Notes under the pieces: generated by a model
Seen by the model: only the letters and a program-made list of their open reading frames with translations
Databases searched by the model: none
Told to the model about the DNA's origin: nothing
Program-made: the position numbers and the translations under genes
Part shown: in pieces, positions 18,196-36,429 of the stretch
Layout of the letters: every line of letters begins with the position of its first letter
Numbering within the stretch: position 1 is the first letter of the stretch
Assembly: GCA_964485625.1 (NCBI GenBank)
Contig: CAZAJM010000002.1
Coordinates: forward strand, 36,167-100,166
DNA: 64,000 nt
Reading direction: 5' to 3'
Source of the DNA: an uncultured Candidatus Saccharibacteria bacterium
GTDB lineage: Bacteria > Patescibacteriota > UBA1384 > JAGGWG01 > CAZAJM01

Positions 18196-18942
18196 ATGGA
18201 TCAAAAACTACTTAAGGCCCTATCTGGGCTTAACCTGTCGGATAATGAGTCTAGAGTATATATAGCCGCTCTAGAATTGGGTTCAGCTACTGTTTCTCAG
18301 ATAGCTAAAAAAGCTGGTGTGGAGAGGGTTAATACATATAATGTTATAGAGAAGCTGATGAGTAAGGGTTTTGTCTATCAGACTGGAGAAGGAAAATTGA
18401 AAACCTACTCCGCCGTTAGCCCTAAAAGATTAGAGGCAATATCAAGATCTAGAACAGAAAATCTTAAAAATGCCCTACCCCAATTACTATCAATTGAAAA
18501 CTCAAACGAGGTTAAGCCTAAGGTTAGATATTATCAAGGCATTGAAGGAATCAAGGAGGCTTTTGAAGAAACCTTAAAGTGCGATAAAGATGAAGAAATA
18601 CTGGCGGTTGCTACCGCTGAAGGAATATATCAAGCATTAGGAGATTGGACCAGTGAATATTTAAAAAGAAGGATAGAGAAAGGTATTAAAATGAGAGCTA
18701 TAGTCGATAATTCAAAAATAGGTAAAAAGCATAAATCTAACGACAAACAGGAACTACGTACTACAAGATTAGTTGATAAGGATAAGTTTTATTTTTCTAA
18801 TGAGATCAATATATTCGATAATAAGGTAATGATCGTTTCCTATAAAGACAAGATGGGTCTAATAATTGAATCTAAACAAGTTGCCGACACTCAAAGATCG
18901 GTATTTGAACTAGCCTGGAAAGGGGCAAATAATAAATCTTAG
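18196..18942 (+). CDS. TrmB-family transcriptional regulator
   Basis: N-terminal HTH LSDNESRVYIAALELGSATVSQIAKKAGVERVNTYNVIEKLMSKGFV matches the TrmB/archaeal sugar-regulator wHTH pattern. A C-terminal domain follows. Confidence 0.65.
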   Translation: MDQKLLKALSGLNLSDNESRVYIAALELGSATVSQIAKKAGVERVNTYNVIEKLMSKGFVYQTGEGKLKTYSAVSPKRLEAISRSRTENLKNALPQLLSIENSNEVKPKVRYYQGIEGIKEAFEETLKCDKDEEILAVATAEGIYQALGDWTSEYLKRRIEKGIKMRAIVDNSKIGKKHKSNDKQELRTTRLVDKDKFYFSNEINIFDNKVMIVSYKDKMGLIIESKQVADTQRSVFELAWKGANNKS

Positions 18943-21900
18943 TAGCCAATATGGATATGGTTCCACATATGATTATTAGAAAACAGCCCTCTATTACCAC
19001 GCTCTTCTAAGGAGCCATATTTATCATAGATTAGATTAGGTCGATCTTGGTCTTCTTCTCCCTCATCGCTTAACCCATTGTAGTAGTTAACATCTTCTTC
19101 TCTAAAGACCCCTATTTGAAGAGGTAGATCTTCGGCTCTTAGAGTCCAGCCGACCAGCTCTCTAATATGTTCTCTGGTGATCTCGGTTGGGTCTTGGCAT
19201 TTAGTCTCACCGATTCCCAACAAATTACTCAAAACAGTGACTCCTAATTCATACCAATTCTGTGTTACTAAACCGACTATTAATCCACGACTAAAACCTC
19301 TAATTCCAGTTGCCTCATCTATCTCCTCTCCAATTCCAATTTGGTAGGCCATATAGCCGATGGTGCCGACTCCGACCTCCCCACCGCTAATAATACTCTC
19401 TGCTGCTCTAGCAGACTCAACCACATCTCTGTCAACGCCAAAGCTTGTTGCTAGTTGTGTATAGAACTCTCCTTCCTCTAAGTTTCCGTTCTGGAAGCCT
19501 TGGTAGATATCTCTTATCTGCCTTGCTTGACCAACTGTTATACCGGCAAATTGTTGGAACTCATCATCAAAGAACATCTCAGTCATCTCCAAGTAATCTA
19601 GATCTCCTTCAATTACATTTACTACTGCCGGATCTACTACTTCAAAACTACTGTTTAGAACACTGATTAATCTTCCGTCACCTACATTGCCATCTTCCCA
19701 GCCATTATAGGTTTCCTCAATTGCATCTATCTCGGCCCTAGTTAGGCCAATTGCGCCATCGAGCCTTAAATCTATCCAGCTACCGATTAGGGTCTGTTGG
19801 GTCTGATCTTTTATTACCTCTTGGTTAATTTCATCGAAGGCACTATCGATATTTCCGTTAAACAAGTTCGTTAGAACGGTTCTATCAGTAACTGTTGAGC
19901 CAGAAACCCCAACAAAGCTAAGTCCGGCCTCTAGGTACTCATCTTGGCCTATCTCCTCTCCCCTAATATATGAGCGGTCAAATAGATTGGAGAGAACATT
20001 GGCTTGGCTACGATTACCGTCAGTTAGAATTAGAGAGAGTCTCTCCATCCCTGCCGAGAGGGCCCGGTCTCTAGATTCCGGGTCGTTAGTAATTTGAGAT
20101 AGGGCTAGGTCTTTAGGCCAAGACAGTTCCTGCCCTAGATACCTGTCATATAGCTGGGATAACCCAGTGATTAATTGGTTGTTATCTACGTTGCCATTTA
20201 GAATTAGATCAGCGATATTAACGTCTATGTCCGGCCTTTCATCTAGGCCAACTAAATCAGCCAGTTTCTTGTTGCTTAAACCAAATAATTGAGCTTGGGC
20301 AACCCTGCGGGCATAATCTTCGGCTTTTATCTCTCCTTGATAGAGCCTGTAGGTCAACCCTCTATCTAAACCCAAAGATGAATCGGCCCAAGAGAGCTTA
20401 TCTATAACGGTCTGGTCCGGCACCTCATCAGTCTCAATTATCTGATCTAGTTCTTCAACAGAGATGTTAAAACTTGCCGCTACCCGTTCTTTGCCGTTCT
20501 GCTTAATGATCTCTTCCATATCGCCAAAAAATGAACCACTAGTTAAGCCTTTGCTCTCAACTATGGCTTGACCTACCTCTAACTTGATGTTTTTACTTGG
20601 CCCATCATACTCCCACTCATCAAACCAGCCATAGCTATTAGTGTTATCGACTCCCAACCTCTCAAGAATTAAGGCTAGTCCGGCCCTGGCAATTGCTTCG
20701 TCTGTATTAGAGCCCCCATCGACTATCGCCATAAAACTATTGCCCGGCAGACCTAGTTCGGTCTCGACATATGATGAACCGATTCGATTGACTACATCTT
20801 GCCAGTTACCGTCTTTGATCGAGTGGTAGTCATAGATTGTTGGTTGGTAGTTGCCAAAGTTAGGTCGGTATTGGTAGAAAAGCTCTTCTTCCAAACTACT
20901 TCCTGCCAATTTAATATATTCATTTAATCTTTCTTTGTTGGTTAACAGGTTTTTTAGATCTTCTGCTCCGACTTGGTAGTAATCAACCCCCGTAAGTTCG
21001 GTTAATTTTTCCCGAGTAAGATTATCTATCTGCTCGTCTTTAATCCGCTCAATTACATCTTGGCCTAAATTCTCTAGCCCCTCTTCTCTTCTCTGGTCAT
21101 CCTGGTTAGCGATAATTGATTGGACTTGAGCTTTGGAGATACCCAAAGGCAGGCTGATCTCTCCTGAGCTTATCAGACTATTTAGAAGATCAAGACTAAT
21201 ATCTTGACTACTCTCTTGATTATATGGATCTATTCCTAGGGCTCCTGATAGATGGTAGAGACCGGCGGTTAATAGTGAACTCTCTTTACTACTAGATAGA
21301 TCTGAGATTGTATCGCTAGGCAGGCCAATGCTCTTACTAAGCCCGGATAAACTTTGGGAGTTATTAACTCTAGTTCGGTAGGCCTGACCGACTAAGCTAA
21401 GCGTCTCATTGTTACTGCCCCCCAAGCTCTCTATGCCGGTCTTTCTAATAAACTGGTTGGGGTTGGTGTTAATTATTTTCTCTAGATTGTCCTCGCTATA
21501 ATCAATCCGGTAAGCGTTCTCTACTACTGCCTTGCCTAGCTCATAGTTGCTCCAATCTCCCTGCCAGTTAGAGTAGTCCAGACCTAGACCTTCTCTAATC
21601 ACCCGCAGGCCAATAGACTTTAGAATATCTTCTTGGCTACTGCCTTCTATTGAGCCTCCGGGCAGACCCAAGATCTGTTCAAGATAACGGCTACCAACAC
21701 TTAACTCTCCACTGCCGCTCCCGGCAACTATGGAGTTAATGGTGCCAGAGGGTAGGCCTAGCCCGTCTTCCAGGTGGGCCGAACCAAGATTGGGGCTATC
21801 AAGACGACTATTAATTAAGTACCTAGGATCTATGCCTAGTTCTTGGGCGATTTGAGATAGGCCCGATTCCATTAGGGCCGAGTCGATATTATGATGACCT

Positions 21901-23465
21901 CTTTGGTTACCAGGCAGGCGAATAACGGAAGCCAGATCATTTAAGTTGGGGTTTAGGTAGTTGTTAAGCCCGGGTGGCCGGTACTCTGTTTGATAAGCTA
22001 CATGTGCCGGATACCATTTGGTCTTATCACCAAATCCTAAAAAACCCTTAGTCTCACATTTATAGCTACCAACTACAGAGATATCGGCCGCTTTGCCCCC
22101 GTAGTGGGCTGAGCGGGTCGCTTCAGACTCACTAGTTACCGCCTCTTCATCTGACTTGGGGTCAAATTGAGTTAACCGGGAAACTTTAATCTGTGACCAC
22201 TTTTTAGAAGGTTTGGTAAGCTCATCTATTTTTTTAGTCCGAGTGGCCTTAGGAGACTTAATTATCTGGTAGAGTTCATCTTCGTCCACTTGATTAACTC
22301 CAACTCCCTCGTTCTCACCTTGGGCTCTCCGAGCAAGCTCATTAAGTAGTCGTAGTAATCTAATATCTATTTTAAACTCTTTGATTAGGCGAAGATCGTA
22401 TTGATTAATTGCTAGAACCGGCTCTTTCTGCCCCCTGTTAACTGCTTGGAGGGCTTTTAGAATATTTTGATTGTACTCTGATAGTAGGGTTAGGTCATCT
22501 CTTAAGCCTTCGTTGTCTGCTAAGCTCTGGCTACTATTAAGATCGGAGATGGTTGATTTGATTAGTTGGTGATTATCCAATGCCATCTCCAGGCTGGCTC
22601 GATTCCGGCCACCCATAGCTGATAGAGCAGAGAAGTTGGTTAAAATCCGATCGGTCTTAGTAGATAAGTTCTTTATTTCCCTGCTAAGCTCTTGCTTGTC
22701 TTGAGCCCGGGCAAATTGCCAGAAGCTGGTCTGGCTATCTGTCTCCTCGCTCTCCTCTTCCACTTCTTCATCAATTCCTTTAGCTACCTTTCTGGCCTCA
22801 TCGGCCGCCTTGTCACACTCGCCTGCCCAACAGACCGCCTCGGCCACATCTTGCCTGTCAGCAGCTAAGTCCTCATCTGGAAGCTCGGTTGGGGTTGAGC
22901 CCATATTACTAGCAAGATATATCAGGCCAAAAATTAATATTACTGCTAATAAAACCAACCCAATTATTGCAGCATATTCACCAATAAAAGCAATAGCCGC
23001 TCCGGCTCCTCTAGCAATAGCTCCACCGGCCCTACTAAGCAAACCCCCGGCCTTGGCTGCCTCCTTGCCACCCTTGGCAGCTTTGGCGGCATCTTTTGCC
23101 TCCTTCTTAACTGCTTTCTCACCTACATCCTCTGCTTTATCTTCAGCCTCATCTTTCGCCTTCTCTCCTAGGTCACTATCGTCTTTCTCCTGGTCTTCTT
23201 TCTGGTCCTTTTCTTCTTGATCTTTCTCTTCTTCTTTGTCCTCCTCCTCTTCCTTCTCATCCTGCTCTTCTTCATCTCTCTCTTCATCCTCATCTTCTTC
23301 TTGCTGCTGGTCTTGTCTGCCAACAGAAGTAGGCTTCTTCTTTAGGCGCTTAATAGTCTCTTCTGTGATCTCTGTCTCCTCTGTTTTTTCAACGTCAAGC
23401 TCCGTTTTAAGACGTTCGTAGTAACTATCTTCTTCTCTTTTTTTCTTTTTTTTATCTTTAGCCAT
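18939..23465 (-). CDS. Giant membrane-anchored surface protein (1508 aa): acidic/Lys-rich cytoplasmic N-terminus, one TM helix, about 1300-aa extracytoplasmic region. Last gene of the T4SS-like operon.
   Basis: Continuous ORF. N-terminal 150 aa are E/D/K low complexity. TM AIAFIGEYAAIIGLVLLAVILIFGLIYL at about 160-187. No enzymatic motif recognised. Confidence 0.6.
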   Translation of the reverse strand: MAKDKKKKKREEDSYYERLKTELDVEKTEETEITEETIKRLKKKPTSVGRQDQQQEEDEDEERDEEEQDEKEEEEDKEEEKDQEEKDQKEDQEKDDSDLGEKAKDEAEDKAEDVGEKAVKKEAKDAAKAAKGGKEAAKAGGLLSRAGGAIARGAGAAIAFIGEYAAIIGLVLLAVILIFGLIYLASNMGSTPTELPDEDLAADRQDVAEAVCWAGECDKAADEARKVAKGIDEEVEEESEETDSQTSFWQFARAQDKQELSREIKNLSTKTDRILTNFSALSAMGGRNRASLEMALDNHQLIKSTISDLNSSQSLADNEGLRDDLTLLSEYNQNILKALQAVNRGQKEPVLAINQYDLRLIKEFKIDIRLLRLLNELARRAQGENEGVGVNQVDEDELYQIIKSPKATRTKKIDELTKPSKKWSQIKVSRLTQFDPKSDEEAVTSESEATRSAHYGGKAADISVVGSYKCETKGFLGFGDKTKWYPAHVAYQTEYRPPGLNNYLNPNLNDLASVIRLPGNQRGHHNIDSALMESGLSQIAQELGIDPRYLINSRLDSPNLGSAHLEDGLGLPSGTINSIVAGSGSGELSVGSRYLEQILGLPGGSIEGSSQEDILKSIGLRVIREGLGLDYSNWQGDWSNYELGKAVVENAYRIDYSEDNLEKIINTNPNQFIRKTGIESLGGSNNETLSLVGQAYRTRVNNSQSLSGLSKSIGLPSDTISDLSSSKESSLLTAGLYHLSGALGIDPYNQESSQDISLDLLNSLISSGEISLPLGISKAQVQSIIANQDDQRREEGLENLGQDVIERIKDEQIDNLTREKLTELTGVDYYQVGAEDLKNLLTNKERLNEYIKLAGSSLEEELFYQYRPNFGNYQPTIYDYHSIKDGNWQDVVNRIGSSYVETELGLPGNSFMAIVDGGSNTDEAIARAGLALILERLGVDNTNSYGWFDEWEYDGPSKNIKLEVGQAIVESKGLTSGSFFGDMEEIIKQNGKERVAASFNISVEELDQIIETDEVPDQTVIDKLSWADSSLGLDRGLTYRLYQGEIKAEDYARRVAQAQLFGLSNKKLADLVGLDERPDIDVNIADLILNGNVDNNQLITGLSQLYDRYLGQELSWPKDLALSQITNDPESRDRALSAGMERLSLILTDGNRSQANVLSNLFDRSYIRGEEIGQDEYLEAGLSFVGVSGSTVTDRTVLTNLFNGNIDSAFDEINQEVIKDQTQQTLIGSWIDLRLDGAIGLTRAEIDAIEETYNGWEDGNVGDGRLISVLNSSFEVVDPAVVNVIEGDLDYLEMTEMFFDDEFQQFAGITVGQARQIRDIYQGFQNGNLEEGEFYTQLATSFGVDRDVVESARAAESIISGGEVGVGTIGYMAYQIGIGEEIDEATGIRGFSRGLIVGLVTQNWYELGVTVLSNLLGIGETKCQDPTEITREHIRELVGWTLRAEDLPLQIGVFREEDVNYYNGLSDEGEEDQDRPNLIYDKYGSLEERGNRGLFSNNHMWNHIHIGY

Positions 23466-23468
23466 TTG

Positions 23469-24770
23469 TTAATAGTTTTTAGAGATTAATTCAAGGCTAA
23501 CTAACTGATTATCTGTAGTTAAATATATTTGGTTGTTATTATTATCTACCTCGACCTCTCTAACTACCTCCTTATTATCCTCTGGCCAGCCATACTCTAG
23601 TAGTTCTCCACTGTTAATATCGTATCTAAACAATTTATCTTCTTCGTCGATTCTGCCTGTTCCAATAAACTGGTTGTTGCTGACCCAGTCGATATTGTTT
23701 AGATCTAGATTAATATTTAAATTCTCCTTATTCTCACCACCTATATCCATAATCGAAAGAGGTTTTAGTCTTTCTGGGGATTGACTTAGGTAGAGAATCT
23801 TCTTGCTATCAGCACTTACCTGGGCCCAGCTAATTTGGCTGTTCTCTAGTGGTGTCCGGAGCCGATCCAAGTAGCTATCATAGATTGAGATACTTTCGCT
23901 GTTACTAATTAGAATATATTCCTTGTTTGGTGACCAAGATATCTCTGGGTCGGTATAACCACTAATCTTAGCTACCCTTCTAACATTTTTTCTCTCCAAG
24001 TCACTTACCACTAGAGAGCTCTCTGGCTCTAGGGTTGAATAGTAGTAGGCGACCTGGTCAAGATCAGGATTAATACTGATACTACCAATGCCGGTGCCCC
24101 AAAACTTAGCTGTTTGATTGAGTAGGTCGTAGCGATTAAAATCATAGAAATATGTAGCAGCACTAGAAGTATCTTTAAAAAATTTAGTGCCGGTTAATTG
24201 GTAGGGCTTATCTATTTGGGCGATAACTCCTAGGTGATCTTTGGTCCAGATAAGGTTTTTAATGTTTCTAAAGATATTTGGAGAGATCCTTTCGGGGTTA
24301 GCCCCATCTCTTCCTAGATTTAATCTCCAACAAGAGCTGTTTTTAAGATAGAAGAGGGTGTTTCTGTTTGAGTCGTAGCTTAGATACTCTATCTTACCCT
24401 TATCAAGCTCATTAAACGACGGCTCTTTCTGCAGATTTACTTTAATTGGCTCGTTGGAGAAGTAGTCGACATTAATTGTCTGTCTGTAAGTTAGATATCC
24501 AGGAGCGGAGATCATTAACAGGTGCTCTCCGGGGCTGGCAGAGAAGCCCTTGTCAACCTCTCTGTTATCCAAAGCTATACTGACCTCTTCTGGTTGGCTA
24601 ATAACTTTAACTGGTGCCTGGTAGAAAAAAAGCAAGTAAAGACCACCAAGCACCAGAACAATTGCTAGGCCGATAATTGCCCTATTAAGCCAACTTAAAC
24701 CAGCTCCTGACTTTTTAATCTTCTGGTTGGTGCTAAACTCCTTCTCTAACTTTTCTAACTGTTTATTCAT
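23469..24770 (-). CDS. Membrane-anchored TolB-like / PD40 beta-propeller protein with a PEGA-like domain
   Basis: N-terminal TM LAIVLVLGGLYLLFF. The LLMISAPGYLTYRQTINV segment resembles a PEGA domain. Repeated ...SWSPN.../...ILY.S... propeller-like blades. Confidence 0.45.
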   Translation of the reverse strand: MNKQLEKLEKEFSTNQKIKKSGAGLSWLNRAIIGLAIVLVLGGLYLLFFYQAPVKVISQPEEVSIALDNREVDKGFSASPGEHLLMISAPGYLTYRQTINVDYFSNEPIKVNLQKEPSFNELDKGKIEYLSYDSNRNTLFYLKNSSCWRLNLGRDGANPERISPNIFRNIKNLIWTKDHLGVIAQIDKPYQLTGTKFFKDTSSAATYFYDFNRYDLLNQTAKFWGTGIGSISINPDLDQVAYYYSTLEPESSLVVSDLERKNVRRVAKISGYTDPEISWSPNKEYILISNSESISIYDSYLDRLRTPLENSQISWAQVSADSKKILYLSQSPERLKPLSIMDIGGENKENLNINLDLNNIDWVSNNQFIGTGRIDEEDKLFRYDINSGELLEYGWPEDNKEVVREVEVDNNNNQIYLTTDNQLVSLELISKNY

Positions 24771-25932
24771 GAGAGTAGATTATTGTTCCACTTGAATCAG
24801 TGTGAGACAGATTACTTGCTTGATTGTATAAAGATCTATCTAACTGACAGCTATAGGCGCCTCTTGTTGTTGAACTATTAACCATAAGTGTATCTGTTGC
24901 TGGATCGTAACCTCTTATCACTATGATGTGACCATAGCTTGATCTTGATCTTTGGCAATTTGAATTGAAGTGGAATCTTTGGAATAATATTACAGGATTT
25001 TTTGCTTTAAGTGATTTCATAACAGTCGACCAACCATTTCCATTGGAGCTTACTCTGCCAACCTTCCAGGCTTTGCCACTTTGTTTTTTTAGTTGAGACA
25101 ATGCTGCTGAGGGAGTGTTAACTGGCCCACCTGAGTATGTATCATCTATTGTCCAGTTACCACCGTAGTAATTAAGCACCATGGCAACCGAAGCTCTGCC
25201 ACAAGTCATACTTGTCTTTTGACCAACTAGGGGCACATTAAGTTTAACATAGTCTCCTCTGATAATATTAGAGGCAGTAGCCGTTTTTAGACTTGGACAA
25301 GAGCCAATAATTTCATTAAAAACTTTAGGTACTACATCAAACCAATGATTGCAATTTTTTCCGCAATATATTTCTCCTATCGACCTAATGTCTGTTATTC
25401 CTTTGCTCAGATATTTTCTTTGCATATATTCAGCATGATTGGCAATTGAGGTATCGTAGTCCGGAAAATCCTCCCAGTCTCTTGGATTAGAACCATTAGA
25501 AGGTACACAAGGATAATCTCCTAATTTAGCAGTATTGCAAGTCATGCTTTGGTAATTATGAGTTGAGGATGAAGCTGCTCCGTAGTTAGTGGCATAAGTT
25601 GTTTCAGCGCCAGCAATAGCAATCATCAGGGCCGGATTCACATTATACTTCTTTCCCTCCCCGGCAAAAATTAACCCCTTATCGGCTAGAGGAGAGTCCG
25701 GTCTTTTTTTAGAAAACCAAGAGTTAAGACATTTTCCGACCTCTTCTGGATCGGCTCCTGAAGGATAGAATAGGCTGCCACTACCACCAGCCTGGGCTGA
25801 GGGCATATACCCACCAGCAATGCCGGAAGTTCTTTCGTGAAATGCAAAAGCGCCAACTGCGCCAAAGATTAGCATGGCGATACCAATAACAAAGACAATT
25901 ATTGTGGCTACTAACCCATCCTGTCTTATCAT
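24763..25932 (-). CDS. Membrane-anchored cell-wall hydrolase: N-acetylglucosaminidase-like domain plus C39/papain-like cysteine peptidase domain (CwlT/PrgK/TcpG analogue)
   Basis: The start is placed at the ATGA overlap with the upstream gene (MIRQDGL...), not the longer ORF-track start. Glucosaminidase-like VNPALMIAIAGAETTYATNYG...SIANHAEYMQRKY. Peptidase part QKTSMTCGRASVAMVLNYYG (Gln/Cys) with GHIIVIRGYD (His). Confidence 0.6.
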   Translation of the reverse strand: MIRQDGLVATIIVFVIGIAMLIFGAVGAFAFHERTSGIAGGYMPSAQAGGSGSLFYPSGADPEEVGKCLNSWFSKKRPDSPLADKGLIFAGEGKKYNVNPALMIAIAGAETTYATNYGAASSSTHNYQSMTCNTAKLGDYPCVPSNGSNPRDWEDFPDYDTSIANHAEYMQRKYLSKGITDIRSIGEIYCGKNCNHWFDVVPKVFNEIIGSCPSLKTATASNIIRGDYVKLNVPLVGQKTSMTCGRASVAMVLNYYGGNWTIDDTYSGGPVNTPSAALSQLKKQSGKAWKVGRVSSNGNGWSTVMKSLKAKNPVILFQRFHFNSNCQRSRSSYGHIIVIRGYDPATDTLMVNSSTTRGAYSCQLDRSLYNQASNLSHTDSSGTIIYSHE

Positions 25933-26627
25933 GGCGCCCTCCAAGCATAACCGACTTGATCGTGAGGATTTTTTAGGAAAAATGATCTGGATATCCATTG
26001 TACGCTGCAAGAACTCTTGCCGCTATTGTGAACTAAGAAGGCATCTTTGTTTTTATCATATTGAGTAGTTGCCATAATATGCATAGTTCCACCGGTGCCG
26101 TTTCTTTTGGGATACTTGGTATAGATAATGACAGCGTCGCCATTTCTAATGGTGTTAATTATGCTGTTCATACCATCGTTTTTATAACTTGTTCTTCTTG
26201 TCCAACTCCCCGGAACCTTTCTTTGTAGTTCAGGACCCCAAGGCCTTCTTCCACCTGACCAATAAGTAAGATCTGTTGGTTTTATGTATTCTCCGGTATA
26301 GCCCATAATAATAGCGGCAGCAGAGGTACAGCCACAGTAACCGCTTTTGAATTGTTTTAGGCAGGGTATATAGTGGTTGTTTGGGTCACCATTAATATAT
26401 GAGCCATCACCGGCTACAGATTCAATATTAACAGGTTGGTTAGGATCTGACGCAATATACTCTCCTTCTGAGGGGCTAAACCCGGCCCCAGCCACAGGCG
26501 AGTAACTAGCCAAACTAACTCCTGCTGCTATGGCTAGGTCAACCAAAAGAATGCCGGCTAAGATAAATATTCCGGCGATTAGGCAACTTACCGCTCCAGC
26601 TTGCTTATTCTCCCTGGCTCTCATCAC
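25929..26627 (-). CDS. Membrane-anchored papain-like (C39-like) cysteine peptidase domain protein
   Basis: N-terminal TM. GYCGCTSAAAIIMGY (catalytic Cys context) and MHIMATTQYD (His), resembling the C39-like fold of the next gene. Confidence 0.45.
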   Translation of the reverse strand: MMRARENKQAGAVSCLIAGIFILAGILLVDLAIAAGVSLASYSPVAGAGFSPSEGEYIASDPNQPVNIESVAGDGSYINGDPNNHYIPCLKQFKSGYCGCTSAAAIIMGYTGEYIKPTDLTYWSGGRRPWGPELQRKVPGSWTRRTSYKNDGMNSIINTIRNGDAVIIYTKYPKRNGTGGTMHIMATTQYDKNKDAFLVHNSGKSSCSVQWISRSFFLKNPHDQVGYAWRAP

Positions 26628-28404
26628 CCTCCTCCTCTTTCATCTCTAGGATCTCCTTGGGATCAGTGGTAATCATCTTGTCTTCAATATATGAGCCGAT
26701 GACTTTGATAGCGGCATGGTTTAGACCGGCAAAGAAAAGCCCTTCACCTACATCTGATTGGAGTAGTAGATATCTTTCTCCTTGGGTTAGATTAAATGTT
26801 TTGCTAACTAGATCGATTGATGACGGAGATTGTTTGAGCAGCATCTGTAGGGAGGAGTTAGAGACAATCGCCTTGCCATACTTGTTATTAAGCACATCTT
26901 CTACATCTTGACTGACCACGGTTAGACCTAAGTAATATTTTCGAGCCCTTTTAGCTAGAGCATAGAGGAACTTAGCTGAATCTTCATGTTGCATCATCCA
27001 CCAGGCCTCATCGACGACCATCAGTCTTCTTTTCTTCTCTTTTCTAATCTGGTTCCAGACGTAACCTAGAATATTGTAGATCGCCAGTGGTCTTAGCTCT
27101 TCATCTAGGTCTCTTACGGAGAAGACATTCATCTGGTTGTTCATATCGATGTTGGTCTGGTGCTTGAAGAGGCCTGAGAAGGTACCCTGGGTATACTTCT
27201 CTAATCTTCTAGCCAGGCTCTCACCATCCTTCATACCGGTTAGTACTCTCTGAAGATCTTCCAGTAGAGGTGGCTCGTTCTTGTGGGTCTCAATATTTTC
27301 GTTAATATCTTTTAGGGCATATGTTTCAAAGAGAGCTTTCTCTAAAATAGCATCTTCTTCTACGCTTAAGCCCTCCATCATCAGCCCGACTAAACCTTTG
27401 ATTCTAATAATAGTGCCTTTTAAGATTGCCTCCCCATCTTCTTCTTGGCCACCGGAGAGATCAAATGGGTTGATCCAATTGCCGGCCTCTAGGTCAACCT
27501 GTAAGTAGTTACCACCAATTCCTTCACACATCCGCTTGTACTCTTCTTCCGGGTCAACTACTATTACCTGCGTGTCATACATCATCGATCTAATAATCTC
27601 TAGCTTAACAGCGTAGGATTTTCCCGAACCAGACTTACCGAAGACAACTGAGTTGGCATTCTCCAGTTCAAAGCGGTCAAAGATGATAAGGGAGTTGTTG
27701 TTACGGTTGATTCCATAAAGAATACCACTGTTACCAGTTAGATTGGAAGAGATAAAGGGGAAGGTAGAAGACAGAGAGCCGGTATCAAAATTACGATTAA
27801 TCATTAATTTGTTTAGTCCTAGGGGAAGGGTTGAGTCAAAACCATCTTTCATTCTAAAGAGGGCTCTTTTGGTTAGAACGATTCCTCCGGCTAAGCGAGT
27901 CTCTATCTGAGAGGTGAGAGTATCTAGTTCCTCAAGGGTTTTAGCATAGATTGTAAAGTAGAGCCCAAATTGGAAGAGCTTAACCTCTCCTTTCTGTAGG
28001 GCATGCCTTAGGGATTCAACATCTTCCATAGCTGTTTCAAGCTCTGGGTCGGAGACTAGGCCCTTCTCTTTTTTCATTCGCCAACTCGATTCCATCTGGC
28101 CCAGCCTGGTCTGGAGTTGTTTCATGATCCGCTTGGTGTCTACCGGATAGACAAACATAGATATATCCATGGTAGCATCGTAGTTAATTAGGGGGGAGAG
28201 CCAGTTGGTGTTTAGATATCTTGGGTAGGTAAAGACAAAGAAGGTTTTAGCATAACGATCATTTATCTTGATATGATCGGGATTAACCAAAAAACTAGCT
28301 GGAGCGATTAGGTCTTTAACCTCAATCATTCCCTTCTCGTAGATCTCCAGGGCTTTCTGGGGGCTTAAGTCGTCATTTTTCTTCTTCTCGCCAATGCCAA
28401 ACAT
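26605..28404 (-). CDS. virB4: VirB4/TraE/ConE-type type IV secretion ATPase (ATPase core)
   Basis: Walker A VVFGKSGSGKSYAV. Walker B RRLMVVDEAWWMM (the DEAW motif typical of VirB4). 599 aa. Confidence 0.8.
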   Translation of the reverse strand: MFGIGEKKKNDDLSPQKALEIYEKGMIEVKDLIAPASFLVNPDHIKINDRYAKTFFVFTYPRYLNTNWLSPLINYDATMDISMFVYPVDTKRIMKQLQTRLGQMESSWRMKKEKGLVSDPELETAMEDVESLRHALQKGEVKLFQFGLYFTIYAKTLEELDTLTSQIETRLAGGIVLTKRALFRMKDGFDSTLPLGLNKLMINRNFDTGSLSSTFPFISSNLTGNSGILYGINRNNNSLIIFDRFELENANSVVFGKSGSGKSYAVKLEIIRSMMYDTQVIVVDPEEEYKRMCEGIGGNYLQVDLEAGNWINPFDLSGGQEEDGEAILKGTIIRIKGLVGLMMEGLSVEEDAILEKALFETYALKDINENIETHKNEPPLLEDLQRVLTGMKDGESLARRLEKYTQGTFSGLFKHQTNIDMNNQMNVFSVRDLDEELRPLAIYNILGYVWNQIRKEKKRRLMVVDEAWWMMQHEDSAKFLYALAKRARKYYLGLTVVSQDVEDVLNNKYGKAIVSNSSLQMLLKQSPSSIDLVSKTFNLTQGERYLLLQSDVGEGLFFAGLNHAAIKVIGSYIEDKMITTDPKEILEMKEEEGDESQGE

Positions 28405-28405
28405 A

Positions 28406-29146
28406 TTATTTACTTTCTTTTTTAGATTTAATTACCGCTCCCATCACATCTTCCGGGTTAGCTATTTTTTTGAACTGAGCCGAGGTTGGGTTGTAGGAGG
28501 TGTATAGTAGCTCAATAATCTCCTGGGTGTTAAGCTGGACTGCTCTGATGCCAATAGAGCTTAGCCCAGAGGCTACCAGGCCTGCTCTCTGTCGCAGTTC
28601 TTTCTTCGCCGCTTCCTTATCTTTGATCTCTATCTTCTTTTTCTGTTTGCTCCTAAAACCGGCAAATAGTTTCTCAAAAGGATTTAAGGCCTTAGAGGAG
28701 ATTGGTTCATAGGGGACAACAACGAAGAAGTTCTTATCCATAATATTGGCAACATCGATTATTCGACGGACAAAGTCGGTATAGTCGGCCATCTGAGCCC
28801 GGAGTAGACTATTGGATTGGTTCTTGGTCCGCTTCTCCAGGTCTTGTAGATATCCTGTTAAGTTTAACTTTCGAGATTGAGTAATAATTTGAATGGGGAA
28901 GGAGAGAGAGTTGAGAAAAGCTTGATAGCCACCGATAATAGCGTTCTGTTCCTCCTCGTTTTTTAAGGAGAAATTAACGGCCGAGACCATTAAGACGATT
29001 CTTATGCCTCCGTTTTTTAAATAAACAAAACCATCCTCAATCCGATCGATATCCAGATTCTCTTGAGTTGGATTATATTTAGTCTCCGTAGACTCTTCTA
29101 GGCCCTCCGGGACTTCTCTGTCTTTCTCTTCTTCTTTCTTTGCTAT
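28406..29146 (-). CDS. VirB4 N-terminal-domain-like protein. Probably begins upstream of the first ATG at a non-canonical start near 29146.
   Basis: ORF track gives 28406..28990 (194 aa). The same frame stays open upstream to a TAA at 29156-29158 and encodes ...NPTQENLDIDRIEDGFVYLKNGGIRIVLMVSAVNFSLKNEEEQNAIIGGYQAFLNSL, which resembles N-termini of Gram-positive conjugative VirB4 proteins (pattern recalled from memory). A perfect SD AAGGAGG sits 4 nt before an ATA codon at 29146-29144. The gene ends 1 nt before the virB4 ATG. Confidence 0.45.
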   Translation of the reverse strand: MAKKEEEKDREVPEGLEESTETKYNPTQENLDIDRIEDGFVYLKNGGIRIVLMVSAVNFSLKNEEEQNAIIGGYQAFLNSLSFPIQIITQSRKLNLTGYLQDLEKRTKNQSNSLLRAQMADYTDFVRRIIDVANIMDKNFFVVVPYEPISSKALNPFEKLFAGFRSKQKKKIEIKDKEAAKKELRQRAGLVASGLSSIGIRAVQLNTQEIIELLYTSYNPTSAQFKKIANPEDVMGAVIKSKKESK

Positions 29147-29189
29147 ATTCCCTCCTTAATTAATATCTGCCTTCTAACTTCTAATTATA

Positions 29190-29723
29190 TCACACAGCCT
29201 CTACTTCGTTTAATGGATCTTCTAAGCCCTCTTTTCTCTCTTGGGGTGACTCAACTCTGCCCTCCGGTTCATCTTCACTGACCACCCTCTTGCCCGTATC
29301 TCTATGCCGCCAGCCGTGGGTATCGACAATCTCCGCTAAAATCTGTAGGCGGCTACGGACCTTTTTGGGGTCTTTAGTTAGCTGGTCGTCATCTTCCTCC
29401 TCATCTTCTTTAGCAATTTTAGGTAGCTCTTGCCCTTTTTTAAAGTATTGCTTTGTCCAGACGAAGATCTTGGGAGAAAAAACAAAAGAGATAAAGGCGG
29501 ATAGAAAGTAAGCAAAGTCTTGTTCTTGAACTTTTAAGAAGGCGAAGGCCAGAGCAGCGGCAGTGATTAGAAAGATTAGCAACCAGCCGGACCAATGGGT
29601 AAAGGTAGAGTAGATGATATAGTCGAGCATGCCGGCTACCAAAAGAAAAATGAACTGCTTTAAAGTCAGAGGCCCAATCACCTTATCTTCCAAGTCTATA
29701 TTTTGTGGGACTTTGTATTGCAT
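29190..29723 (-). CDS. PrgI-family (VirB3-like) two-TM protein
   Basis: N-terminus MQYKVPQNIDLEDKVIGPLTLKQFIFLLVAGML matches the PrgI-family signature (VP.[DN]I...E.K.iGp.TlrQ). Two TM helices. Immediately upstream of the VirB4 genes. Acidic C-terminal tail. Confidence 0.6.
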   Translation of the reverse strand: MQYKVPQNIDLEDKVIGPLTLKQFIFLLVAGMLDYIIYSTFTHWSGWLLIFLITAAALAFAFLKVQEQDFAYFLSAFISFVFSPKIFVWTKQYFKKGQELPKIAKEDEEEDDDQLTKDPKKVRSRLQILAEIVDTHGWRHRDTGKRVVSEDEPEGRVESPQERKEGLEDPLNEVEAV

Positions 29724-29726
29724 AAA

Positions 29727-31814
29727 TTATTCATTTAGATTTTCTTCGTATCTACTTAATTCGCTAATTTGCTCTCTAATTACCTCTTCTATGGTTGAGC
29801 TCTCAATTCTTCCTTCGCTTATCTCCCTAGAAAGAGCCCCTATTATTTCATCAATTCTCTCTTCGGGGATATCTCCTACAGCTTCATGTTCAAGGGTTCT
29901 TTTAATCTGTTCCTTTATCTCTTTTCTGGTTGCTAATTCCTGAGTGGTAATGCCTCTAGTTTCAGTGCTAAGCACTTGAGTTGGTCTTGGGGCGTCAGCA
30001 ACAGTTCTGCTAATAGCAGTTGCTCTGGTGGAAATAGTATCATTTAAACCTATTTCTAGCGCTAATTGTTCGCTATTTGGAGCACTTCCAGTTCGACCTA
30101 CATAACTTTTAAATGCTGGTGCAGATATTGAATAATTAGAAAGTGCTCCCAAGGCACTTTCTTTGGTGTGAACCATATCTTCAGGAAGGCCCGTTACACT
30201 TACCACACGATCTACTACACTGCTTTCTAGATCACCCTCACTTCTATTTTTTATTTCGGCTTGGAGTTCTTCGATGTTGGTAATTGTTACATCAATGTCT
30301 TCTTGGCTTCTAAGGTTATCAATTGTTGCTTCAGCTATTAAATCGTAATTGCCCCCTCCTATCTCCAGGCCTGCCATTTTTTGCAAATTTTTAATATCTT
30401 TATCACTAATTTTTTCAAATAATATACCCTTTTCATCATTTATCATTTGTTGCCCGGCAGTTGTGCTAGGATCATAAAATCCCTTGCCTTTACCTGAAGC
30501 TTCACCTATACCTTGCAGTAAGCTTTTTATAAGTGGTTTGTCGTCTTTGTAATCCGGATCATTAAACATCATACCGAGGGCTCTTATTGCTGCGGTTCTT
30601 GTGTCTGCGTTGCCAGCGTAGAGTGCTCCAAGTGCGCCCTCGATTCCTCCATTTTTGATGTTCTCAGCTGAAGACATCGCTTTATCATGATATTGGGTCC
30701 TTAGCATCTCTTGACCAAGCCTATGTTTTTCCCAGCTCTTCCTAACACTTTTGCCTGTCTCTTTTGACTCAACTTCCAAGGCATTTTCTAGTATATCATC
30801 AATATGCTTTCCCCCTTCTAGACCCTTGTTAATATTACTAAAAAATCTACCAGCACCTACTGCCTGATCATCATCTCCCAATTTTCGACTGCCTACTTTT
30901 GCTCCCCACTTTAAAAAACCCCCAGCCCTTCCTAGCGATTTAGATACAGTTTCTCCAGCTTTTCCTTTAAAAAAACCTAGAACAGCTCCAGAAATGCTAT
31001 TCATACCAACTATTTGATAGGAAATTATTAATGCGGCTATGATTAAAACAATGCCACCGATAAATCCTCCCCAAGGAGTATCGCTGGCTTGCACTTGCAA
31101 GACATTTATCAACCAGACTGAAATAAATATTACCGGACCTACTAGTAAGAATTTTAAAAACCAATCAAACCATATCCCAGCAATGGATTTTCCTAGTGGA
31201 ATGAAGTACAGAACTACGGCGACAGGAGATAGGACGAACAGTATAACTATTACGTAGTATCTAACATATAAGATGAAGGTGAGCATCACCCAGAGAATAA
31301 GAGGAATTAACAAGAGTAATGCCCCGACAATTATCAAGGGAAGGCCGAGTGCTCCAACATAGGGAAAAAACAAGGCGATTACCCCAGTTAAAGTAAAGAT
31401 TCCGCCAACAGTGGTTTGGCCAGTCATGGAACTATAAAGTATCTCACCAATTCCATCCCCAGGACCAGCTAATTGAATAAAAAAATCAGTAACGGAGCTT
31501 ACAATATCTACAACTTCAATAATTAGAAAATAGCTAAAATTTGCTAGAATTATTCCAACAATAAGTCCAGGTAGCGTTCGTTTGATGTCATAGGTTTCTA
31601 AATCAATTCTAAGTAGATAAGCTAAAGCAATAAATATTAATCCAACTACGGCAACAAAATTAACCAGCCCAAGCACAACACTCCAAGCCTCTTCCATCCC
31701 TGCTGATCTAAGCTCTCCGGCAATTCTTGGATAGCCATACGACAGGTTCGGAACAGTTAAAGCTGCCATTAAAAAGAAAAAAATAATTAACTTTTTTATT
31801 TTACACAGGAACAT
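29727..31814 (-). CDS. VirB6-like polytopic membrane protein with a large C-terminal soluble domain
   Basis: Signal-like N-terminus, at least 6 hydrophobic helices within the first about 280 aa, then a roughly 400-aa hydrophilic domain. Position next to PrgI/VirB4, as for VirB6/ConG/PrgH analogues. Confidence 0.5.
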   Translation of the reverse strand: MFLCKIKKLIIFFFLMAALTVPNLSYGYPRIAGELRSAGMEEAWSVVLGLVNFVAVVGLIFIALAYLLRIDLETYDIKRTLPGLIVGIILANFSYFLIIEVVDIVSSVTDFFIQLAGPGDGIGEILYSSMTGQTTVGGIFTLTGVIALFFPYVGALGLPLIIVGALLLLIPLILWVMLTFILYVRYYVIVILFVLSPVAVVLYFIPLGKSIAGIWFDWFLKFLLVGPVIFISVWLINVLQVQASDTPWGGFIGGIVLIIAALIISYQIVGMNSISGAVLGFFKGKAGETVSKSLGRAGGFLKWGAKVGSRKLGDDDQAVGAGRFFSNINKGLEGGKHIDDILENALEVESKETGKSVRKSWEKHRLGQEMLRTQYHDKAMSSAENIKNGGIEGALGALYAGNADTRTAAIRALGMMFNDPDYKDDKPLIKSLLQGIGEASGKGKGFYDPSTTAGQQMINDEKGILFEKISDKDIKNLQKMAGLEIGGGNYDLIAEATIDNLRSQEDIDVTITNIEELQAEIKNRSEGDLESSVVDRVVSVTGLPEDMVHTKESALGALSNYSISAPAFKSYVGRTGSAPNSEQLALEIGLNDTISTRATAISRTVADAPRPTQVLSTETRGITTQELATRKEIKEQIKRTLEHEAVGDIPEERIDEIIGALSREISEGRIESSTIEEVIREQISELSRYEENLNE

Positions 31815-33261
31815 TGTTTAGTAGATTGTTTAATATATTAAAAATACTTTCAACTATTTCGTTTACCCACTTCTTTAATTTTTCCGTGATTGATTTTAAA
31901 AATTGATTACCCCCCTTTAAGCTTCCTCTATCAGTCTGGTCATCAACAGTTAGCATTAGTGAATTAAAGTTCTCTCTCTCTTTCTTTACTATTTCCAATA
32001 AATTTTCATCTTGAGAAGCTAAACACTCTCTATATTCGATATATTTGCTTAAATAGTTTGAGGCTAGATAAAGTTTTTCCCAATCTTTTTGTTGATTTTG
32101 GTTATAATTAAGTAGTCCAAGCAGGACATCTGGGGTTACCTCACTTAGTTCTGTTACACAAGTTGCCAAATCAACAAACTTATTATATTTAGATGTTTCG
32201 CTGTTAACTTGATTTGATATAGCGGTTTTTGTTAATCCAGATTTACTTTTTCCGGTACAATAAGGTATTCGATCGACAATTTCTTCATGATCAGCCCAGG
32301 CACTAGTTATTGTTTTTTCTGTTTCATGTATTATATTATTCATTTGTTGATAGGTGCCAGTGTTTATACTAGACAAGCCTGCATTGGCAAAGAAGCTAAG
32401 AAATAAATTTTTATCCTCTTGGAAGCTAAGAAGCAATAAGTCTGGGTCGTCGAATATCACATTGTTGTTTTCTGACCACCAATTATTAGCTTGCTTTTTT
32501 ATTTGGCTAATAATCTCTTTCCCATTGTCTTGTGCTTGATAATTATTTTCCAAATTTTTGTTAGTGCAATAATCAATTGCATCTTGAGAGGCTTCTCTTT
32601 GATGTAAATTATCAGTTGTATTTAGCTTGGCCCCATTAGCATAAATGTCTTTGGATAATTTTGCTAAAGTAGGATTATCTTTTTCATCAATAATATCAAA
32701 TTTATATGTTTGAAACGGTCCAGTGAACCATTGGAGCTTCCTAACTATTTCGTCTATAACATTAGTTGTGTCAGGTTGGTTGTATTGAAAAGAGTAATCA
32801 GATTCATCCCTGTCTGTGTGTTTTACCAGAGCCAAAACAGATTTGTTGGATACAAATAACACGCTTCTTTTATCACTTTCCAGTATGTACCAATTTGCAT
32901 CTACCATTCTGTTCGCTGAAAGCGGATCATTCGGGTCAAACCTTTCTGTTGATCTAGGAGGCTGCCCTCTGTATAAAGATCCTAGACTAGAAGCTGGCCC
33001 CTTGAAATAATAGACTTTATCAGTATCATCAATTGTCAATTTTATTTTTTTAGTATCTGATTCCGGCTCTATAATTAGGTCAAACTGATAATCTCTAGAG
33101 TAGCTTAAACTGGGTAAGTCATCAATATTAATACCTTTTGTTTTTGTCGGATTTATTAAAATTATAGACGTAACAAAAACCAATAAAACAAAAATAGGAA
33201 AAAAAGCTAGCAACAAATTTTTTGTATTTTTTTTATTGTTCTTTCTGTTTTTTCCTTTCAC
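31801..33261 (-). CDS. Bitopic membrane protein (486 aa), unknown function. Possible VirB8-like scaffold analogue.
   Basis: Basic N-terminus, single TM LLLAFFPIFVLLVFVTSIILI, large extracytoplasmic domain. Translationally coupled within the cluster. Confidence 0.4.
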   Translation of the reverse strand: MKGKNRKNNKKNTKNLLLAFFPIFVLLVFVTSIILINPTKTKGINIDDLPSLSYSRDYQFDLIIEPESDTKKIKLTIDDTDKVYYFKGPASSLGSLYRGQPPRSTERFDPNDPLSANRMVDANWYILESDKRSVLFVSNKSVLALVKHTDRDESDYSFQYNQPDTTNVIDEIVRKLQWFTGPFQTYKFDIIDEKDNPTLAKLSKDIYANGAKLNTTDNLHQREASQDAIDYCTNKNLENNYQAQDNGKEIISQIKKQANNWWSENNNVIFDDPDLLLLSFQEDKNLFLSFFANAGLSSINTGTYQQMNNIIHETEKTITSAWADHEEIVDRIPYCTGKSKSGLTKTAISNQVNSETSKYNKFVDLATCVTELSEVTPDVLLGLLNYNQNQQKDWEKLYLASNYLSKYIEYRECLASQDENLLEIVKKERENFNSLMLTVDDQTDRGSLKGGNQFLKSITEKLKKWVNEIVESIFNILNNLLNNVPV

Positions 33262-34296
33262 TTATCCCTCCTCTTTTAGTGAGTTTGCTTTTAGCTGCAT
33301 CTGCTTAGCAGTCTCTGTTTCGTTTTTTGATTGGTAGGCTTTGGAGAGCAGCTCATAGGTTAGGCTGTAGCTGGGGTCTAGCTCCTTAGCCTTATTTAAA
33401 TTCTCTATTGCTTGATCAGTTTGGTTCTCTTGAATCTGGCCATAAGCTAGAAAGACATAGCCATCTCTTAGATCCGGATATTCTGATATTAACTCCTCTA
33501 GTTTAGCAGTGGCTAGACCGGACTCCCCTACCTGATTAAGCAGTTGGCCTAAAAGTAGCTTTCTAGTGGCTGGGCTATTGGTGGCTAGCATTCTTTTAAA
33601 AGCGGTCTCTATTTGCTGGCAGTCTTCCTTGGTTGCTGCTAGAACAGACTTCTCTAAATTGCTAAAGCTTACTTCTTGGTTTTTGGAGTATTTCTCGATT
33701 TGCTCATAGCCATTTTCAACATCTCTGTAGGCCAGTACTAATCCGAGGTAGAGATTATAGTCAGCTGAAGGGAAGATCTCTAAGGCAGCTTGGAAACTCT
33801 CTTCTGCCTGTTTGAGCTGATTCTGGTTCATCTGGGCCCTACCTAGCCAGTAATATATTTCACTGTTGGTCGGTTCATAGGCGAAGCAATTTTCAAAGTA
33901 GCTCTGAGCTTGGGCGTAATCTTTTTGATTGTAATAGGTTTTGGCTAGAGCGAAGGTGGGCGCCATCTCTTCTCTGGCAAACTGGATTGACTTTTTGTAT
34001 GAGTCTATTGCCATCTCTGTCTGGCCTATCTTCTCAAGCACTCTGCCTTGGTGGTAGTAGGGGGCAAAACTTCTGGGGGTGGCCATCTGAGCTTTCTTGT
34101 ACTGCAAATAGGCCTGTTTGTACTCTTGGCTCTGTTCTAATTCTTGACCTTTAGCTAGATAATCTTCGGCCAGACTAGCTCTTTTGCCATCCATTAGAAA
34201 CCAAAAAGCACCAAACAGGATAAGAATTGATAAAAAAACAATTAAACCGATCTGTAATCCTCGATTTTTCATAAGCTTGAGTTTATTATAGCACAA
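33262..34296 (-). CDS. TPR-repeat membrane-anchored protein
   Basis: N-terminal TM. At least 6 TPR-like 34-residue repeats (A..Y...G......A...Y..AL...P). Its stop abuts the next gene (1-nt gap). Confidence 0.6.
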   Translation of the reverse strand: MCYNKLKLMKNRGLQIGLIVFLSILILFGAFWFLMDGKRASLAEDYLAKGQELEQSQEYKQAYLQYKKAQMATPRSFAPYYHQGRVLEKIGQTEMAIDSYKKSIQFAREEMAPTFALAKTYYNQKDYAQAQSYFENCFAYEPTNSEIYYWLGRAQMNQNQLKQAEESFQAALEIFPSADYNLYLGLVLAYRDVENGYEQIEKYSKNQEVSFSNLEKSVLAATKEDCQQIETAFKRMLATNSPATRKLLLGQLLNQVGESGLATAKLEELISEYPDLRDGYVFLAYGQIQENQTDQAIENLNKAKELDPSYSLTYELLSKAYQSKNETETAKQMQLKANSLKEEG

Positions 34297-36407: not shown

Positions 36408-36429
36408 TGTTTTTTTAGTATATCCTTAT

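Follow-up and report, generated by a model that had tools for sequence, protein, structure and literature searches.

The largest protein encoded in a 64,000-nucleotide stretch of DNA from an uncultured Candidatus Saccharibacteria bacterium (contig CAZAJM010000002.1, positions 36,167 to 100,166; hereafter the window) may be a membrane-tethered, peptidoglycan-directed accessory of a type IV secretion system (T4SS), with a two-segment putative zinc-site domain and a long, faster-evolving helical arm. We put this proposal forward tentatively, with our confidence in it a little under even. The core of the domain would consist of amino acids (aa) ~349-513 and ~1417-1508, which are ~950 aa apart and would jointly supply a His-x6-Asp motif and a C-terminal His. 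This triad is of the kind that binds catalytic zinc in LAS/M15 peptidoglycan peptidases, and a metal would be expected here as well. The ~900-aa helical-repeat segment would loop out of the domain as a long arm of family-variable length. Tethered in the membrane beside the T4SS channel, the domain might bind or cleave the peptide stems of peptidoglycan, and the protein might act together with co-encoded glycan- and peptide-cleaving enzymes and a PEGA-beta-propeller protein. The arm could extend across the wall or past it, to serve as a scaffold of the channel or pilus or to contact the host cell wall, and the target could be the wall of the cell itself or that of its host.

The gene for this protein (hereafter the giant) is on the minus strand (18939..23465), has an ATG start and codes for 1508 aa followed by a stop codon. 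It is the largest open reading frame (ORF) of the window, the runner-up having 903 aa, and the final gene of a tightly packed minus-strand T4SS-like operon whose neighbouring genes are translationally coupled. ORF and gene order thus bear out an earlier description made from the letters of the window (the original prediction), which had also proposed a charged cytoplasmic N-terminus of ~150 aa, a single transmembrane (TM) helix and ~1300 aa outside the membrane. Composition, hydropathy and flank charges agree with that topology. Residues 1-152 include 56 Asp/Glu and 36 Lys/Arg (net charge -20), the sole strongly hydrophobic stretch reaches a Kyte-Doolittle maximum of 3.05 at aa 166-184 (values elsewhere are <=1.6), and the helix is flanked by three Lys/Arg on its N-side (net +2) and by a net charge of -6 on its C-side. 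By the positive-inside rule, these flank charges indicate a cytoplasmic N-terminus and an external C-terminal part of ~1300 aa. Sequence properties therefore support a type II membrane protein with a charged cytoplasmic tail, one TM helix and ~1300 extracytoplasmic residues. Across the family described below, the acidic tail varies and is missing from many distant members, which begin with a signal anchor. The first TM segment lies near residues 1-60 in many members, and an N-terminal TM segment or signal anchor was present in most members examined. A CWAG[D/E]C motif was observed at aa 212-217 (nt 22815-22832), ~25 residues past the TM helix; it is invariant in three close homologues and could form a small disulfide loop or a metal-binding knuckle at the membrane surface.

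An exhaustive HMMER profile search with aa 349-1508 detected 84 cluster representatives of the giant family at E<=1e-3. Nearly all members have 1400-2900 aa (P0058, at 866 aa, is a short one), and the matches concentrate at profile positions ~70-290 (aa ~420-640 of the window protein) and in the last ~60-140 residues. A word-indexed search returned two relatives only, P0002 (62% identity) and P0003 (57%); searches of this type were weak, with 3 matches each to the giant and to a VanY domain, and with 6 fragments matched by the family profile. When the full protein, each half and two spliced constructs were searched against PDB sequences, Pfam and NCBIfam, nothing significant was found. With a profile built from the alignment of the spliced family, only a chance match was retrieved from the PDB sequences (E=0.68), the sole match to PHROGs was non-significant (E=0.54), the family consensus had no match in 50,697 phage records (tblastn), and a scan of the genome contigs with the giant found no relative. 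The family is unannotated, without a Pfam, NCBIfam or PDB match.

The original prediction saw no recognisable enzymatic motif outside the membrane. This holds for the library searches (Pfam, NCBIfam and PDB), but the residues that are invariant in the family give a LAS/M15-like H-x6-D...H signature. In a two-segment alignment of 28 diverse members, D367, L377, S452, H454, G457, A459, D461, Q492, G1493 and H1505 were invariant. The elements of the N-half are a helix with D367 and the near-invariant R369, a strand reading IKVSR (R430), the loop and strand of the His/Asp motif, and a strand with Q492. The pattern [ST][AP]HxxGxAxD[IVL] occurs in 51 of 87 sequences and a terminal H[IVL][GS][YF] in 57 of them, with a spacing of 600-2500 aa between the two, and the His/Asp motif is found in a strict or loose form in ~60 of the 68 full-length members. 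When ligand sets were counted in these 68 with a looser motif definition and an alignment guided by a hidden Markov model (HMM), 58 had both sets, 5 neither, 2 the N-terminal and 3 the C-terminal set only (Fisher p=1e-4, an indicative value, as related sequences were treated as independent). The two halves are also the best-conserved parts of the giant, the C-half most of all (Table 1). C1423 is invariant (40/40), which leaves no covariation signal for a Cys470/Cys1423 disulfide staple.

The signature resembles that of LAS proteins in the order of its elements. In both, a strand ending in Arg is followed by S-x-H-x-x-G-x-A-x-D-[IV] and then by [D/E/N]-x-x-H on the last strand, and S452/H454/G457/A459/D461 of the giant match the LAS ligand pattern H-x(3-6)-D within S-x-H-x-x-G-x-A-x-D. 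The giant's 'SAHYGGKAADIS ... NHIHIGY' is comparable to 'SLHYEGRAVDIT ... AHIHCSV' of Shh-N, and its counterpart in VanY is 'SMHEAGLAFD ... ESWHFDY'. H1503-x-H1505 forms an HxH in the window protein, and the residue at position -3 from H1505 is D or E in many members and variable in others. The spacing from the second to the third ligand differs, being 600-2500 aa in the family as against ~40-70 in LAS peptidases. Sub-threshold Pfam matches were found to Peptidase_M15_4 (6 members), DUF5715 (3), VanY (2), HH_signal (2), Extensin-like_C (2) and M15_3 (1), all of which fall on the His/Asp motif, over ~35 residues; VanY and DUF5715, and likewise M15_4 and Extensin-like_C, co-match the same stretches of genuine peptidases. 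In hhalign comparisons, the motif matched position by position that of Shh-N (score 30.2, P=3.6e-4; the Shh sequence used was confirmed against the PDB, E=1e-119), of three VanY domains and of one M15_4 domain, and four of the six positives exceeded the highest score among the 49 negatives, 23.1. We do not claim membership of the giant in M15, as the similarity is confined to the motif and no PDB fold match was obtained; that the protein may work like a LAS-type zinc site is the leading mechanistic reading of these sequence patterns.

Modelling with AlphaFold in segments followed by Foldseek, a check suggested in the original prediction, succeeded in part: the spliced halves fold confidently, but they have no significant match in the PDB. 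The spliced construct joined aa 366-513 to aa 1417-1508 (240 aa) and was aligned with 40 full-length homologues; MAFFT set both halves correctly, with the same invariant columns as above. Its model had a mean predicted local distance difference test score (pLDDT) of 84.7 and a predicted template modelling score (pTM) of 0.78, with a pLDDT of 94-98 in the C-half. Taken with the coupled conservation of the ligands, this pTM supports a single domain broken by a ~900-aa insertion. Thus, aa ~349-513 and ~1417-1508 appear to form one compact domain, in which H454, D461 and H1505 may lie close together. Against BFVD, Foldseek gave one marginal match, an uncharacterised 689-aa protein of an uncultured Caudovirales phage (A0A6J5M9G1; E=3e-3, 155 columns, template modelling score 0.28).

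Genomic context points to a link of the giant with the cell wall. The original prediction had advised a check of whether homologs co-occur with VirB4 and PrgI genes in related genomes, and such linkage was found. Two close loci, L001 and L002, have the same order as the window (TPR protein, ~480-aa protein, ~700-aa protein, PrgI, TrsD-like protein, VirB4, two C39 proteins, ~440-aa protein, giant), and, among named Patescibacteria, the four closest loci (L008, L009, L010 and L012) each have a family member downstream of VirB4. The best named VirB4 relatives (<=60% identity) come from metagenome-assembled genomes labelled Saccharibacteria, Berkelbacteria, Doudnabacteria and Patescibacteria group; closest relatives, composition and T4SS type all assign the window to Patescibacteria (CPR). 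In all loci with enough upstream sequence, the giant is preceded by a wall-hydrolase module comprising a muramidase or SLT protein with C39, VanY or amidase, a PEGA-beta-propeller protein and often M23. Read from upstream toward the giant, the order is Glucosaminidase+VanY and a 344-aa protein in L003; Glucosaminidase+C39, beta-propeller and M23 in L007; SLT-lysozyme, PEGA-beta-propeller and M23 in L008; SLT+Amidase_3, PEGA-beta-propeller and M23 in L009; and PEGA-beta-propeller, M15_4 and M23 in L010. In the window, L001 and L002, the PEGA/propeller-type partner directly precedes the giant, and an M23 or M15_4 peptidase intervenes in L007-L010. These constant peptidoglycan-hydrolase neighbours argue for an action of the giant on the cell wall rather than for a pure adhesin or stalk.

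Several observations weigh against our proposal. The search of the spliced model against the PDB with Foldseek gave no significant match (best E=2.4, template modelling score ~0.1), so that a Hedgehog/DD-peptidase fold was not recovered; this counts against a LAS assignment because a typical M15/Hedgehog fold should have been recognised. The spliced model itself rests on an artificial construct, and the model of the native segment (aa 349-1508, 1160 aa, 3 sequences) was uninformative (mean pLDDT 36.8) and left the halves unassembled; we used it solely for the insertion being predicted helical throughout. The acidic residue that serves as general base in LAS/M15 enzymes, at position -3 from the last His, is Asn in the window protein. 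No Pfam, NCBIfam or PHROG model reached its threshold with the giant and PDB sequence and profile searches were empty, so that significant similarity to M15_x, VanY or HH_signal models was not obtained; the sub-threshold Pfam matches of its relatives scored 12-16 bits against cut-offs of 22-27. With genuine LAS domains, hhalign aligned 10-46 columns only, at probabilities of 0.5-37%, and one of the 49 negatives, at 23.1, came near the positives. The segment that precedes the C-half is TM-like in some distant members (Kyte-Doolittle 3.27 in P0039, 2.05 in P0027 and 2.03 in P0038), and if it crosses the membrane in these, their halves would be on opposite sides. Finally, the family occurs within 10 kb of VirB4 in only 4 of 80 named Patescibacteria loci, those with the most similar VirB4 (57-60% identity), and is therefore a lineage-restricted accessory rather than a universal part of the T4SS.

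The insertion has properties of its own. It contains a degenerate ~30-aa unit marked by LG[LIV][PD], with 8 copies as against 0.36 expected (maximum of 3 in 300 shuffles), and looser versions of this motif are enriched in other family members. Self-comparison of the giant revealed no long tandem repeats. The internal repeats for which the original prediction had advised a check are thus present as the degenerate unit, but not in long tandem form. Iterative searches with repeat HMMs recovered only their 8 seed copies, and we therefore claim a degenerate motif and not a defined repeat domain. Nonsynonymous divergence (dN) from L001 and L002 is 0.30-0.37 for the giant versus 0.045-0.073 for VirB4, i.e., the giant evolves ~5-6x faster; synonymous sites were saturated in this comparison, precluding dN/dS. 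Within the giant, the insertion evolves faster than the domain halves.

These properties would also suit a non-enzymatic surface fibre or host-contact protein, in which the helical repeat region would be the functional part, as an adhesin or specificity determinant, and the two-part domain would serve only as a structural base, perhaps stabilised by metal, that holds the two fibre ends near the membrane. We regard this as unlikely. In addition to the fast evolution of the giant and particularly of its insertion, the distance between the ligand motifs, insertion included, varies four-fold (600-2500 aa), and the peptidase fold was not recognised by the fold search. Three members that are close to the window protein by overall score (P0005, P0006 and P0011; 1e-75 to 1e-100) lack both ligand sets and keep the giant architecture, so that the two sets vanish together while the architecture persists. 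Their sequences suggest possible 'pseudoenzymes'; if so, the protein would have a structural role that does not depend on the metal site. It is also relevant that the T4SSs of Patescibacteria, which are MPF-FATA-like and mostly lack a relaxase and a cluster-linked coupling protein, have no recognised adhesin, such as a canonical PrgB (PMC12102498). On the other hand, the strictly invariant residues match the triad of a metal site and not fibre residues, the neighbours are always peptidoglycan hydrolases, and the helical arm is a prediction of a single low-confidence model. Pfam and NCBIfam searches detected no features of adhesins, lectins, Ig-like domains or sorting signals, and the C-terminus (...NHIHIGY) has no LPXTG sorting signal. 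The adhesin suggested in the original prediction is retained in one respect: an exposed or host-facing role fits the fast evolution, but an adhesin domain and a sorting signal were not found. For the same reason, we rejected a PrgB-like LPXTG adhesin as a candidate.

It is also conceivable, if rather improbable, that the two segments are independent domains, namely an extracellular His/Asp domain and a separate C-terminal one, the latter perhaps lying across the membrane via a second TM helix. This would accommodate the TM-like segment of P0039, P0027 and P0038, the unassembled halves of the native-sequence model and the fact that LAS profile matches never include the C-terminal motif. The very high pLDDT of the C-half alone might likewise indicate that it is self-sufficient. 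In the window protein, however, the segment (aa 1391-1416, consensus h6-T-G-N-P/W-h12-L-F-G) has a Kyte-Doolittle value of 1.12, which, beside the 3.05 of the real TM helix, is not TM-like. Possible identities for the segment are a core helix buried in the fold, a hairpin dipping into the membrane and a second TM helix. A pTM of 0.78 would be high for unconnected domains in a 240-residue spliced model, and the ligands of the two segments are kept or lost together. Moreover, other T4SS loci encode M15/VanY and Hedgehog-like proteins with a contiguous domain in which the Arg strand, SxHxxGxAxD and terminal [D/E/N]xxH follow in this order; these proteins end in EPWHWS, DHWHISY and AHWHCVF. We thus retain the single split domain as part of our proposal.

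The original prediction also considered a contact-dependent effector delivered or displayed by the system. An effector or toxin delivered into or onto the host bacterium would degrade the host wall with its peptidase-like domain. Peptidoglycan hydrolase effectors delivered by T4SSs exist in other bacteria, e.g., the X-Tfe effectors of Xanthomonas, and offer a precedent. The role of the T4SS in Saccharibacteria has been stated as unknown, with effector delivery proposed (PMC11665869), and the rapid evolution of the giant would suit such a function. Yet the N-terminal anchor, which is conserved across the family and present in most members examined, argues for Sec-dependent insertion and tethering and not for translocation by the T4SS; the gene is fixed in a structural operon with translationally coupled neighbours; and no conserved immunity-like gene adjoins it, the downstream genes varying between loci. 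We consider free delivery of the giant quite improbable. The last suggestion, a VirB10/CagY-like structural stalk of the channel, fits the large size, helix anchor, cytoplasmic N-terminus (as in VirB10) and T4SS operon location of the giant, but it is very improbable, as Pfam and NCBIfam gave no VirB10/TrbI or CagY match, VirB10 homologs are essentially absent from Patescibacteria T4SS loci, which are of the monoderm MPF-FATA type without an outer-membrane core complex (PMC12102498), and presence in 4 of 80 related VirB4 loci is unexpected for a core channel subunit. VirB10/TrbI/CagY was accordingly rejected as a candidate family: the giant has no such C-terminal domain and no CagY repeats, only the short degenerate LG[LIV][PD] motif.

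Among known systems, the functional class of PrgK (pCF10), TraG (pIP501), CwlT (ICEBs1) and VirB1 appears to be closest to the giant. Like it, these proteins are encoded in MPF-FATA-type T4SS operons, have an N-terminal anchor and have their bulk outside (background in PMC12102498), and both are tied to glycan- and peptide-cleaving activities with a presumed role in local opening of the wall. The giant differs in that Pfam and NCBIfam detect no SLT, lysozyme-like, CHAP or NlpC/P60 domain in it, the wall-hydrolase domains being on neighbouring genes; it is 2-3x larger, its sole catalytic-type signature is the LAS-like triad split by ~950 aa, and it is found in only a subset of Patescibacteria loci. 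A second relevant protein is SEML1_0007 of Ca. Southlakia epibionticum ML1, which has 1113 aa, is encoded beside VirB4, has a structure-predicted Hedgehog/DD-peptidase domain and is essential for epibiotic growth (PMC10633639 Tables S1, S2). It is followed by lysozyme/cysteine-peptidase and PEGA proteins in an essential T4SS cluster (PMC10633639 Table S2). By its published description, it resembles the giant as a large T4SS-cluster protein with a LAS-type domain assignment in the company of wall enzymes and PEGA proteins. Its domain, however, is uninterrupted (aa 951-1105) and was identified by comparing structures, whereas the segments of the giant are ~950 aa apart and were not recognised by Foldseek; in addition, SEML1_0007 directly follows VirB4 and the giant is last in its operon.

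A third group came from the other Patescibacteria T4SS loci, in many of which the gene after VirB4 codes for a fusion of a VirB2-like pilin (PF18895) with a C-terminal M15_4 or VanY domain (L069:12760-14172, L085:11855-13696, L026:12852-14090, L032:12904-13749 and L038:13195-14160). The L038 fusion reads 'SSHYEGRAVDI...AHWHCVF' and is strikingly Hedgehog-like. We found no mention of a peptidoglycan peptidase fused to a pilin in the T4SS papers that we consulted. These fusions share with the giant the place downstream of VirB4, the type of zinc motif and a C-terminus just past the last ligand (EPWHWS.., DHWHISY, AHWHCVF). They differ in size (280-614 aa), in their contiguous domain, which in most is above the Pfam threshold (M15_4 2e-14, VanY 4e-14), and in the pilin to which it is fused; homology to the giant was not detectable beyond the motif, and the giant has the helical-repeat insertion instead. 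Judged by the pilin fusions and the Southlakia cluster, LAS-type peptidases are a recurrent ingredient of Patescibacteria T4SS loci. Phage tape-measure proteins with embedded lytic domains are likewise very long and mostly helical, carry a small wall-degrading motif and vary in length between relatives. The giant resembles them in length, predicted helicity and a small, putatively wall-degrading motif but has no sequence or structural similarity to them, and it is a membrane-anchored cellular protein whereas they are virion components.

The remaining features of the locus are given in Table 1. The giant shares its operon with VirB4, VirB3/PrgI, TrsD-like and VirB6-like genes, and the best explanation of the cluster is a Gram-positive-type (MPF-FATA-like) Patescibacteria T4SS with the giant as a conserved accessory component. 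The two C39-like proteins each have one N-terminal anchor. Their genes overlap by 82 nt as called by a mechanical ORF caller, the one at 24763-26010 with a TTG start; its true start is probably further in. The product of this gene also has a sub-threshold glucosaminidase match (4e-5; 24.7 bits vs a cut-off of 30.2). In related loci, the slot orthologous to 23469-24770 shows stronger PEGA matches than the window protein. On the opposite strand, a gene for a TrmB/MarR-type helix-turn-helix regulator (18196-18942, plus strand) is convergent with the giant gene, with a 4-nt overlap at the stop codon of the latter, which leaves no space for an intergenic terminator between them. Directly upstream of the T4SS cluster and on the same strand are housekeeping genes, which encode TsaD and a class I aminoacyl-tRNA synthetase that matches a leucyl-tRNA synthetase editing domain (34320-37446, minus strand). 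Genes downstream of the giant differ between loci and are recF-like, dnaN and dnaA in L002. dnaN lies beside the cluster or the giant in L002 and in the P0026 contig (with dnaA too in L002), in agreement with the published origin-proximal tendency of such T4SS clusters.

Table 1. Genes of the T4SS-like operon upstream of the giant, and segments of the giant protein, with positions in the window
Feature	Position (nt)	Residues	Strand	Basis or remark
TPR protein	33262-34296		-	
Anchored 486-aa protein	31801-33261		-	
695-aa polytopic protein, ~8 TM segments	29727-31814		-	VirB6-like by position and topology only
PrgI/VirB3-like membrane protein	29190-29723		-	Pfam 7e-11
TrsD/TraC-like protein, resembles VirB4 N-terminus	28406-28990		-	NCBIfam 2e-6
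VirB4-family T4SS ATPase	26605-28404		-	Pfam TraG P-loop 8e-26; NCBIfam CD1110 family 7.6e-111
Anchored C39-like protein, 232 aa	25929-26627		-	
Anchored 415-aa protein	24763-26010		-	Peptidase_C39_2 (1.4e-14); read as cell-wall hydrolase
433-aa N-terminally anchored protein	23469-24770		-	sub-threshold PEGA and beta-propeller matches
Giant: acidic, lysine-rich low-complexity N-terminus, predicted cytoplasmic	23010..23465	1-152	-	composition
Giant: single TM helix, predicted N-in/C-out	22905..22997	~157-187	-	Kyte-Doolittle 3.05, flank charges
Giant: juxtamembrane extracytoplasmic segment	22422..22895	191-348	-	poorly conserved, 46-48% identity to L001/L002
Giant: N-half of conserved domain	21927..22421	349-513	-	conservation, 70-73% identity to L001/L002
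Giant: putative metal-ligand motif S-A-H-Y-G-G-K-A-A-D (H454, D461)	22083..22112	452-461	-	
Giant: ~900-aa insertion, predicted all-helical	19218..21926	514-1416	-	low-confidence model only; 55-62% identity to L001/L002
Giant: conserved hydrophobic 'GL..GL.TxNW/P...L..LxG' segment closing the insertion, before the C-half	19218..19295	1391-1416	-	
Giant: C-half of conserved domain, first residues including invariant C1423	18942..19217	1417-1508	-	77-78% identity to L001/L002
Giant: C-terminal motif H-M-W-N-H-I-H-I-G-Y	18942..18971	1499-1508	-	H1505 invariant (4th from end)

Divergence of the operon was found to be mosaic. When positions 26639-31891 of the window were compared with L001 and L002, VirB4 was 93% and 89% identical, respectively, with saturated synonymous sites. 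The VirB6-like gene was 94% identical to that of L002, with a synonymous divergence (dS) of only 0.25, yet 30% identical to that of L001. The glucosaminidase-like/C39 gene was only 40% and 24% identical to its counterparts in L001 and L002. This pattern suggests that the VirB6-like cassette may have been recently exchanged and that exposed components turn over fast.

Hydrolases that act on the wall in T4SSs are already known; a giant family with a LAS-like triad split by 600-2500 aa would be new, provided that the split domain and the metal site are confirmed. A more far-reaching version of our proposal is doubtful at present: the giants might represent a new class of membrane-tethered 'hydrolase-on-a-loop' proteins, in which a LAS-derived zinc-site domain is split by a helical-repeat arm of 600-2500 aa. 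Anchored at both ends, this arm would project from the T4SS of the epibiont across its own wall to the host and would be a length-tuned, fast-evolving element of host specificity and wall breaching. If the two-segment zinc domain is real, it would illustrate an unusually extreme tolerance of a small catalytic domain to a huge insertion (~950 aa here), and it would caution that such enzymes escape annotation based on domains. A large part of bacterial diversity is made up of Patescibacteria, which live attached to other cells, and this large, exposed, fast-evolving and wall-enzyme-coupled protein is a concrete candidate for a part of the machine that handles their own wall or that of the host.

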